In this document: positions 1-3,342 of the stretch, one piece after another | Position numbering within the stretch: position 1 is the stretch's first letter | Layout: the number at the start of each line of letters is the position of its first letter | Virus genome (UHGV): UHGV-1485618 | Direction: 5' to 3' (one strand) | From: a virus | DNA length: 26,401 nucleotides | Program-made: the position numbers and the translations under genes | The notes under the pieces: model-generated | The model's input: only the letters and a program-made list of their open reading frames with translations | What the model was told of the DNA's origin: nothing | Database searches by the model: none

Positions 1-199
1 CAGAAGCAGAAAAAGCTTATTATGCTTCCATCGGAAACGATGATCTGGCAGCCTGAGTTCACAGATAAAACACTCTCCAGGAAACCCGGGGCGGTTCAGC
101 GCACTATTGCTGCCATAGCCTTAGCAGCGAAGTAATCACGTAATGTCGCATCACTTGCCATTTCTGGGCGTTTGATATCTGCTTCATAAAACTCGCACA

Positions 200-493
200 T
201 CATTCACCTCCCAGAGCCTTGCTGATTGCTGCAAGACCTTTATTAACAGCTCCATACCATTCTGGACATGTTGTCGTTGTTCTATTTTTGGATTGCTTAA
301 GTAATAACTGAAGTGCTTCGAGAAGGTCAGGAGCTGCTGCTATCAGTAGCGCATCCTCCCTTTCATTTCTTGTTGCTGCTTCAATGTATGTGTCACCAAT
401 CGTCACACCATGGAACGTAGTCATCATCTCGTTGACGTTTCTAACCGTGTACTTCCATTTACCAGGCGTACCCTTAAACTCTTTCATATTCAC
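200..493 (-). CDS. Early-left hypothetical protein, 97 aa; possibly Ead/Ea22-like (AAAPDLLEAL motif)
   Basis: ORF downstream of N in the pL operon. The family guess rests only on a remembered motif. Confidence 0.55.
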   Translation of the reverse strand: MNMKEFKGTPGKWKYTVRNVNEMMTTFHGVTIGDTYIEAATRNEREDALLIAAAPDLLEALQLLLKQSKNRTTTTCPEWYGAVNKGLAAISKALGGE

Positions 494-543
494 CTCTGTT
501 GTTTATGCCAAAAATAAAGGCCGACTATGCGGCATAATTATTT

Positions 544-732
544 TTAACTATCATCAATACATGGCACTTTATTCCAGTCGATATCGTTTTTATTGTCGTC
601 CCACATGTCTTTGTTTTTGTATTTCTCGCTACATCCTAGGCAAATGTTGTATGGCCTACCGATAAGGTTTAACGAAATACGTTGCATTTCATTTGATTCA
701 AACATGTATCCACAGAACTGACATTTATGCAT
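544..732 (-). CDS. Small Cys4 zinc-ribbon-like protein, 62 aa (CxxC ... CxxC), in the ral-equivalent position
   Basis: ORF immediately downstream of N; two CxxC pairs (C4/C7 and C31/C34); AT-rich DNA compared with its neighbours. Confidence 0.5.
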   Translation of the reverse strand: MHKCQFCGYMFESNEMQRISLNLIGRPYNICLGCSEKYKNKDMWDDNKNDIDWNKVPCIDDS

Positions 733-735
733 ATC

Positions 736-1068
736 TCACCCCTCATACAGTAGCTTACTGCCTAATTTCATTTTCTGGCGACCAACACAAGTCACACCCA
801 TTTCACTGCGTGGCTTGCTGTACCATGTGCGCTGATTCTTGCGCTCAATACGTTGCAGGTTGCTTTCAATCTGTTCGTGGTATTCAGCCAGCACTGTAAG
901 GTCTATCGGATTCAGTGCGCTTTCTACTCGTGATTTCGGTTTGCGATTCAGCGAGAGAATAGGGCGGTTAACTGGTTTTGCGCTTACCCCAACCAACAGG
1001 GGATTTGCTGCTTTCCATTGAGCCTGTTTCTCTGCGCGACGTTCGCGGCGGCGTGCTTGTGCATCCAT
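736..1068 (-). CDS. N: Antitermination protein N (lambda type)
   Basis: Translation from the internal Met (MDAQARRRERRAEKQAQWKAANPLLVGVSAKPVNRPILSLNRKPKSRV...) matches lambda N as I remember it. ATG on the minus strand at 1068-1066, with an AGGAG-type Shine-Dalgarno upstream. The listed ORF start at 1158 is an in-frame extension through nutL. Confidence 0.9.
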   Translation of the reverse strand: MDAQARRRERRAEKQAQWKAANPLLVGVSAKPVNRPILSLNRKPKSRVESALNPIDLTVLAEYHEQIESNLQRIERKNQRTWYSKPRSEMGVTCVGRQKMKLGSKLLYEG

Positions 1069-1178
1069 CTGGATTCTCCTGTCAGTTAGCTTTGAGTAAC
1101 GCGCCGTGATGCTTATCTCCACGGTTGCTGTCTTGCAGCTGCATTTCGCGCTACTCAAAGCTTTCTGCTTTGAATGCT

Positions 1179-1209
1179 GCCCTTCTTCAGGGCTAAATTT
1201 TTAAGAGCC
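1179..1209 (-). promoter_or_regulatory. nutL (boxA GGCTCTTAA, boxB GCCCTGAAGAAGGGC)
   Basis: Minus strand reads GGCTCTTAAAAATTTAGCCCTGAAGAAGGGC, a lambda-type nut site about 110 nt upstream of N. Confidence 0.8.
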
Positions 1210-1254
1210 TCACCTTCAATGGTGGTTAGTGCGTCCTGCTGATGGCTTAAAATT

Positions 1255-1322
1255 ACAAGAAAGATTGTATGTTGTAAACAAGGAATATTGTAAAAATGGG
1301 CGTGAAAAACAAACTCCATTGT
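1255..1322 (-). promoter_or_regulatory. OL1-OL2-OL3 operators of phage-434 type with pL
   Basis: Three 14-mers with ACAA-N6-TTGT symmetry: ACAAGAAAGATTGT (1255-1268), ACAAGGAATATTGT (1278-1291), ACAAACTCCATTGT (1309-1322). Confidence 0.85.
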
Positions 1323-1350
1323 TTTTAAACGGAAAATAGTTTGTTTTTTG
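1307..1350 (-). terminator. Possible t_imm-like terminator ending the cI-operon transcript (AT-rich hairpin plus T-run), overlapping OL3
   Basis: Inverted repeat AAACAAACT (1307-1315) / AGTTTGTTT (1338-1346) flanked by T-runs on both strands. Stem is AT-rich and the loop is long, so this is weak. Confidence 0.3.
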
Positions 1351-1372
1351 GTTGTCGAAATTGAGGTTAGGA

Positions 1373-2726
<1,354 letters not shown>

Positions 2727-2734
2727 GACATTCC

Positions 2735-2766
2735 CGCTCTTACACATCCCAGCCCTGAAAAAGGGC
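2735..2766 (+). promoter_or_regulatory. nutR (boxA CGCTCTTAC, boxB GCCCTGAAAAAGGGC)
   Basis: Lambda-type boxA at 2735-2743 and boxB hairpin at 2752-2766, between cro and cII. Confidence 0.85.
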
Positions 2767-2845
2767 ATCAAATTAAACCACACCTATGGTGTATGCATTT
2801 ATTTGCATACATTCAATCGATTGTTATCTAAGGAAATACTTACAT

Positions 2846-3139
2846 ATGGTTCGTGCAAACAAACGCAACGAGGCTCTACGAATCGAGAGTGCGTTGCTTA
2901 ACAAAATCGCAATGCTTGGAACTGAGAAGACAGCGGAAGCTGTGGGAGTTGATAAGTCGCAGATCAGCAGGTGGAAGAGGGATTGGATTCCAAAGTTCTC
3001 AATGCTGCTTGCTGTTCTTGAATGGGGTGTCGTCGACGACGACATGGCTCGATTGGCACGACAAGTTGCTTCGATTCTCACCAATAAAAAACGCCCGGCG
3101 GCAACCGAGCGTTCTGATCAAATCCAGATGGAATTCTGA
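2846..3139 (+). CDS. cII: Transcriptional activator CII (lambda type)
   Basis: Translation from the ATG at 2846 (MVRANKRNEALRIESALLNKIAMLGTEKTAEAVGVDKSQISRWKRDWIPKF...) matches lambda CII from memory; AGGAAA Shine-Dalgarno upstream. Confidence 0.95.
   Translation: MVRANKRNEALRIESALLNKIAMLGTEKTAEAVGVDKSQISRWKRDWIPKFSMLLAVLEWGVVDDDMARLARQVASILTNKKRPAATERSDQIQMEF
2855..2868 (-). promoter_or_regulatory. pRE CII-binding site (TTGC-N6-TTGC) at the 5' end of cII
   Basis: Minus strand reads TTGCGTTTGTTTGC, the expected position of the pRE -35 region. Confidence 0.6.
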
Positions 3140-3171
3140 GGTCATTACTGGATCAATCCACAGGAGTCATT

Positions 3172-3342
3172 ATGACAAAACGTCGTAAGAAATACCAGGA
3201 AAAAGAAGAGATTCGACACCCTGATTCACCTGAGGGATTAGTGGTAGCCGCAGCAAATAACAGGGCGTTCGCAGAGCGCCTTGTTGGTGTTTACAGACTA
3301 GCCAAAGCAGGAGTGAAACATGGGCGTCGTTAAGTTAGCTGA
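3172..3342 (+). CDS. Possible small basic protein, 56 aa, between cII and the replication initiator
   Basis: ATG at 3172 preceded by AGGAGT; [56 protein letters not shown] overlaps the O-like start by 23 nt. Below the 60-aa cutoff of the supplied track. Confidence 0.3.

Follow-up and report, generated by a model that had tools for sequence, protein, structure and literature searches.

At its left end the window, the whole stretch of 26,401 nucleotides that was analysed (UHGV virus genome UHGV-1485618), covers immunity-proximal genes of the leftward early (pL) operon from an E. coli-type lambdoid prophage. Two small genes, here called gene A and gene B, lie on the minus strand directly after the antiterminator gene N, as a preliminary description of this DNA had stated. 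The identity of N is confirmed by its family matches (Table 1), and the same N is so annotated in mEp213, Dewey and E. coli prophages. The genes are tightly packed. The ATG of gene A stands 3 nt past the N stop codon (TGA at 738-736), and its Shine-Dalgarno sequence, GAGGGG, falls within the 3' end of N, which thereby carries the ribosome-binding site of its neighbour. A spacer of 50 nt separates gene A from gene B, and the gene B stop shares an ATGA at 203-200 with the start codon of the gene that follows. The order N-A-B recurs in mEp213 and in the IMG/VR locus L016. With 35% GC, against 51% in N and 49% in the whole window, gene A was rightly called AT-rich. A promoter scan of positions 1-1500 found no sigma-70-like promoter, and an Rfam scan of positions 1-3000 returned no match. 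Between the repressor gene and pL lies a 134-aa ORF (1373-1777, minus strand) with a signal-peptide-like N-terminal segment and no Pfam match; its position matches that of lambda rexAB, and it may be a lysogen-expressed moron.

Table 1. Features at the left end of the window, listed from N leftward.
Feature	Positions	Strand	Evidence or content
Antiterminator N (lambda type)	736-1071	minus	Pfam N36, E 3.5e-25; phrog_271
Gene A, 62 aa, CxxC-x23-CxxC	544-732	minus	ORF list
Cassette-boundary element	495-534	minus	hairpin GCCG-CATAGT-CGGC, then CTTTATTTTTGGCATAAACAACAGA
Gene B, 95 aa from ATG 487	200-487	minus	homologue starts; AGAGGTG just 5' of the ATG
Gene B codons 1-60: N-module (KEFKGTPGKWKYTVRNVNEMMTTFHGVTIGDTYIEAATRNE) and invariant helix EDAxLIAAAPDLLEALQ	308-487	minus	family alignment
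Gene B codons 61-84: hypervariable cassette (LLLKQSKNRTTTTCPEWYGAVNKG)	236-307	minus	cassette typing
Gene B codons 85-95 and stop: conserved tail LAAISKALGGE	200-235	minus	family alignment
Next pL gene, first 35 codons	96-203	minus	intact homologue of 66 aa (MCEFYEADIKRPEMASDATLRDYFAAKAM...), cluster c22 of the slot catalogue
IS3-family insertion sequence, terminal ~98 nt	1-98		minus strand reads TGAACCGCCCCGGGTTTCC...

Both genes are under strong purifying selection, which marks them as genuine coding genes and not chance ORFs. When gene A is compared with the HK225 homologue and with those of three metagenomic contigs, pS is 0.8-0.9, which is saturated, and pN is 0.14-0.21; the closest informative pair gives a dS of 0.16 and a dN of 0.03. 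Codons 1-60 of gene B show dS values of 0.14-1.0 and dN values of 0.007-0.056, for a dN/dS of about 0.05. The start of gene B needs correction. A mechanical ORF opening at GTG 493 does exist and yields the 97 aa given in the preliminary description, but all database homologues begin with MKEFKG and AGAGGTG stands just 5' of ATG 487, so that the true product is most likely 95 aa long. The gene that follows is cut at codon 35 by an IS3-family element, which supplies its stop codon. The end of this element matches 24,808 places in 4,073 E. coli genomes, where the annotation is IS3-family transposase. Such a terminus accounts for the contig ending at this point, and the insertion leaves the pL operon of the prophage interrupted just beyond gene B.

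Gene A is already known as a sequence, being 100% identical to the hypothetical protein mEp213_050, and it aligns over its full length with phrog_19863 (residues 1-62 on profile positions 1-62, E 5.6e-47). The family is tiny: among 50,697 phage records, gene A occurs besides mEp213 only in Louie and HK225, a search of 5.8 billion proteins gathered 8 clusters, and an exhaustive profile search of 1.8 billion representatives returned 10 matches, several of them spurious C2H2 arrays, and so enlarged the family by just a handful of relatives. Pfam, NCBIfam and PADLOC gave nothing significant for it, and a sequence search of the PDB gave no match. In L007 and L159 a homologue follows immediately on an N gene of another type; in L156 it stands second after N, and in L009 it immediately precedes a third type of N. 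The L157 homologue comes right behind a B-family gene, that of HK225 is second in its operon, and that of L010 sits among consecutive small early genes of a T4-like phage; all of these contexts are the proximal pL operon or an early gene cluster. The HK225 homologue (L013) has the same short hairpin, CCGCATCAGCGGGTAAC, on both sides, at about 1470-1500 and about 1690-1710, and these flanking copies may be the trace of a cassette insertion.

The protein has five cysteines, arranged as C4-x2-C7, C31-x2-C34 and a fifth at residue 59. C31 and C34 are invariant, and no full-length member, distant ones included, lacks C4 or C7; the other conserved features are MQRIS, G/K-PYNIC-x2-C, W-D and ND-I-x-W, and the C-terminal half is acidic and aromatic (DMWDDNKNDIDW). 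An AF2 model (pLDDT 85.5) combines a zinc knuckle with a beta-hairpin and puts the second CxxC at the N-terminus of a helix, with the two conserved CxxC pairs placed so that they are predicted to hold one zinc. The model and the fold search fit a treble-clef-type finger better than the zinc ribbon that had been proposed, and we adopt treble clef as the predicted class. The fold scores against known treble-clef fingers (RING, FYVE, the ClpX zinc-binding domain, the anti-sigma factor CsfB/Gin) and against the zinc-bearing HNH fold are all sub-significant, with no family-level sequence match to treble-clef or HNH families, and the weak fold matches include ribosomal zinc-finger proteins and the Cap5 HNH domain. 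Could gene A be a degenerate HNH (beta-beta-alpha-Me) nuclease? It lacks the catalytic residues: the conserved strand, MQRISLN, contains no histidine, with MQRIS in place of the HNH catalytic His, and Pfam gives no HNH match. This candidate was rejected.

What gene A shares with other phages is its place. A catalogue of the position was built from 80 viral contigs carrying the same N type, in 77 of which N could be located. The first gene after N encodes Ral at 17 of the 77 loci, Nmad5 at 15, the 83-aa phrog_2471 at 11, the 156-aa phrog_1636 at about 10, a 107-aa protein at 8 and gene A at 3; DUF7446 and several further families are also found there, so that more than ten unknown families share the position with Ral and Nmad5. 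Lambda and P22 likewise have ral as their first gene leftward of N, and the placement of gene A in a ral-equivalent position holds. The slot has defined edges, the conserved 3' end of N on the left and an element of about 40 nt, a hairpin followed by a T-run, on the right. Gene A is thus a rare occupant of a recombinationally exchangeable slot, and the position after N emerges as a sharply bounded hot spot for more than a dozen unrelated small genes. Among the genes found there only Ral has a known role. Guilt by position is for that reason weak evidence, and for the same reason the slot is a compact place in which to look for factors of counter-defence or host takeover.

The right edge of the slot looks like a putative small intrinsic terminator, equivalent to tL1, judging from its sequence. 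Its consensus is (G)GCCGCATAGTCGGCC-TTTATTTTTGGCATAAACAACAGA; an exact 15-mer of it is present in 52 of 160 fetched loci, and, with at most 2 mismatches allowed, it follows N at 37 of 80 N loci, whatever gene occupies the slot and with unrelated sequence to its left. Folding gave a dG of -13.5 with a z-score of -2.1 over 60 nt and -1.08 over 73 nt, so the score varies with the stretch folded, and the GC stem has only 4 bp. A consensus terminator scan did not call the element at 495-534. Canonical terminators with different stems lie 3' of the diverged gene A homologues in L159, L007 and L156, and in HK225 and L009 a hairpin without a T-run follows the homologue. Some loci (L002, L101, L107, L115, L116) contain two copies of the element, one behind each of two consecutive cassettes, and these twin copies resemble a repeated cassette boundary. 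Because gene A lies upstream of this terminator-like element, we infer that it would be transcribed together with N before antitermination.

Gene B, too, is not new as a sequence, and like gene A it is an addition to an existing family. Far from being an orphan, it belongs to PF27050 (Phage_P22_Y8K6), the family of P22 orf78. The PF27050.1 assignment is precomputed on an identical 95-aa protein (P0009) and on all 120 homologues among the matches listed, and the PGAP label of one variant reads 'XkdD/Y8K6 family phage-associated protein'. Membership of gene B is accordingly a precomputed annotation: the Pfam set that was scanned did not include this newer model and gave no significant match, nor did NCBIfam or PADLOC, and a PDB sequence search gave only matches with E>0.7. 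Profile comparison agrees with the annotation, with an E of 1.6e-26 against phrog_1273 and an hhalign probability of 96.6% (E 5.4e-10) against P22 orf78, the founding member. P22 orf78 follows directly after ral in the order 24-(sieB)-ral-orf78, and gene B has the same relative position. The two proteins have in common an AAP[DE]LLEAL helix and an ARAAIxKALGxE tail and differ in the type of their N-module. A search of the published literature on XkdD and P22 orf78 found nothing functional. B-family genes are present in 18 of the 77 N loci, second after N in most.

The family is built from exchangeable parts. Residues 1-60, which end in the invariant helix (also given as LIAAAPDLLEALQ), and the last 11 or so residues are near-invariant, and residues 61-84 are hypervariable, differing in length as well as in sequence. 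Across 89 genes of the family, 9 N-module types, 18 cassette types and 25 downstream genes are freely combined. The transitions are equally clear at the DNA level: alleles are 96-100% identical over the N-module and helix and 49-60% identical between differing cassette types, with sharp breakpoints. This contrast between flanks and cassettes rejects frameshifts or point-mutation drift as the origin of the variability. A diversity-generating retroelement was rejected in view of the differing cassette lengths and the discreteness of the types. The putative recombination joints lie inside the gene, at the invariant helix, and so constitute a clear case of intragenic mosaicism that could be used for domain swaps. 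Structure prediction, which the preliminary description had proposed as a check on both proteins, gave a confident model for gene A and a mixed one for gene B, where helices at 42-67 and 74-91 are modelled with good confidence but residues 1-39 are poorly modelled, at low confidence. The cassette is predicted to take in the last part of helix 1, the loop and the first part of helix 2. At codon 74 (266-268) the window's gene B encodes Cys (TTTTCPEWY); all other examined members of this cassette type have Tyr there.

The preliminary description had also noticed an Ead/Ea22-like motif in gene B. Residues 5-54 match an alignment of 20 Ead/Ea22-like proteins (hhalign 98.5%, E 3.2e-15), and a 151-aa relative (L155), with a score of 84 bits against Pfam Ead_Ea22, shares 39% identity with gene B across residues 5-90 (BLASTP). 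Together, these matches indicate that the motif reflects true homology. Gene B itself stands outside that Pfam family: it has no match to Pfam Ead_Ea22 (PF13935) at E<=1, and homology to lambda Ea22 by direct comparison was rejected at an hhalign probability of 0.1%, leaving a link that runs only through the intermediate Ead/Ea22-like protein. The layouts correspond. In Ead/Ea22-like proteins, as in gene B, the N-module comes in alternative types and is followed by an Ala-rich helix (FIAAANPATVLALLDELE) and a hypervariable middle part; the tail is again conserved, here AAGIGVKGE, comparable to the gene B tail in its G-x-E, and both are early pL-operon proteins. Unlike them, gene B has neither the N-terminal ALREAAEKA segment nor the coiled coil nor the C-terminal domain, and it adjoins the N position, whereas Ead/Ea22 genes lie in the exo-xis region; lambda Ea22 itself is without the N-module common to gene B. 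Ea22 has a central coiled coil and a C-terminal domain (PMC10834534), and it is reported to be pro-lysogenic and tetrameric, with a mosaic C-terminal part (PMC7093339, PMC10834534); functional differences among Ead/Ea22-like proteins have been ascribed to their variable C-terminal parts (PMC7093339). Gene B is thus in effect a miniature Ead/Ea22-like protein. The shared N-module and the layout of scaffold and cassette tie the P22 orf78 type to the Ead/Ea22-like proteins, two groups of early genes that are both unexplained.

What could these two genes do? Their position and timing suggest accessory roles in host interaction or counter-defence. The explanation that we favour, at somewhat better than even confidence, takes gene A for a zinc finger in a swap slot that inhibits a host protein, and gene B for a miniature Ead/Ea22-like homologue of orf78, with a scaffold and a variable tip. 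The earlier observation of the two genes is thereby confirmed and its interpretation partly supported.

For gene B, the invariant helix and the conserved tail would form the base of a helical hairpin and the cassette its tip. Recombination at the invariant helix and the tail would exchange the tip, which may set the binding partner, on a scaffold made of the conserved parts. By analogy with the pro-lysogenic Ea22, the protein might then modulate early development or a host factor, and not restriction. A broad anti-restriction role for gene B is unlikely, though the evidence against it is weak. The motifs of neither protein were found in the supplementary files of an accessory-gene screen (PMC12373910). 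The main rival for gene B holds that the variable segment is neutral, a tolerant linker or a recombination scar, with the activity residing in the N-module, the invariant helix and the tail. It is a serious possibility, if on the whole an unlikely one. In its favour, the DNA breakpoints at the ends of the conserved blocks are sharp, the cassette length ranges from about 14 to 42 residues, cassette type is not associated with N-module or downstream gene, and the overlap of the tail with the start of the next gene could alone explain why the tail is conserved. However, cassette types stay conserved when they recur in other backgrounds, as LLLKQ[ST]KNRTTTTYPEWY does with three N-module types, and their sequences remain compatible with a helix and are modelled confidently within the helical hairpin. 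The Ead/Ea22-like proteins, in which the variable parts are credited with the functional differences, also have the same layout. These points argue against a neutral segment.

A bolder extension of the scaffold-and-tip reading can be formulated, and we think it decidedly unlikely as a whole. Lambdoid phages would use the interval from N to the hairpin as a dedicated cassette-exchange site for unrelated immediate-early genes, and the product of gene A would be a new zinc finger that inhibits a host immunity protein. Gene B and the Ead/Ea22-like proteins would make up a scaffold superfamily, whose cassettes, swapped at invariant linker helices, direct one shared activity at different host factors.

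For gene A, translation would be coupled to that of N, and the protein would probably be made with N from the immediate-early transcript, ahead of antitermination. A small zinc-stabilised protein produced at this stage would most probably bind and inhibit a host protein, in counter-defence or in host takeover. The proposal draws on the swap-prone early slot that gene A shares with Ral, the predicted timing, the acidic and aromatic tail, and the sporadic distribution.

Gene A could instead act on nucleic acids, as a regulator resembling Com of Mu or Ogr of P2, or as an N cofactor that stabilises or modulates the antitermination complex. Its tight linkage to at least three antiterminator types, directly after or before them, would fit such a role, as would the ribosomal zinc-finger proteins among its weak fold matches. 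Its size and CxxC-x23-CxxC spacing are also reminiscent of Com and Ogr. However, it has no Pfam match to Com, Ogr/Delta, DksA/TraR or YacG at E<=1, its acidic C-terminal half is unusual for a nucleic-acid binder, 74 of the 77 loci with the same N are without it, and one homologue resides in a T4-like early cluster that has no N. A role as an N cofactor or at nucleic acids is on these grounds improbable.

The comparison with Ral is the most obvious one. Both genes lie at the same site immediately after N, both products are small (66 aa for Ral, 62 aa for gene A) and contain cysteines, and both would be expressed very early, in the case of gene A by inference. They have no detectable sequence similarity. 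The preliminary description had seen no resemblance to Ral, and the comparison bears this out: the hhalign probability of gene A against lambda Ral is 0.2%, at which homology is rejected, and the Ral family is absent from the Pfam, NCBIfam and PHROG matches of gene A. Gene A might nonetheless be a functional analogue that alleviates type I restriction, for example of the EcoKI type, by means of an unrelated sequence. The shared place, size and timing speak for it, and against it stand the failed comparison with Ral and the lack of a match to any anti-restriction family in Pfam, PHROG, NCBIfam or PADLOC. Moreover, more than ten unrelated families occupy this position, a predicted nucleotide-modification protein among them, and function therefore does not follow from position. 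We regard a Ral analogue as more improbable still than a regulator, and inhibition of a host protein remains the preferred reading of gene A. The least credible idea is that A, B or both are morons expressed in the lysogen that shield the host, for instance through superinfection exclusion or defence: the AT-richness of gene A relative to its surroundings, typical of horizontally acquired morons, and the terminator-like hairpin 3' of it would agree with this, but the scanned region is without a sigma-70-like promoter, both genes sit in the repressor-controlled pL operon coupled to upstream genes, and PADLOC gives no match.

Some related phages carry duplicated components of this region. Two B-family paralogues occupy a single pL operon in Dewey (L001; 1696-1938 and 2605-2883) and also in L102, and in both pairs the N-modules and the cassettes differ. 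In mEp213 (L002), two different genes annotated as N lie in one pL operon (1501-1773 and 2926-3258), one of the lambda/HK244 type and the other of the HK620 type, and the genes downstream of either N are in turn followed by a copy of the hairpin element.
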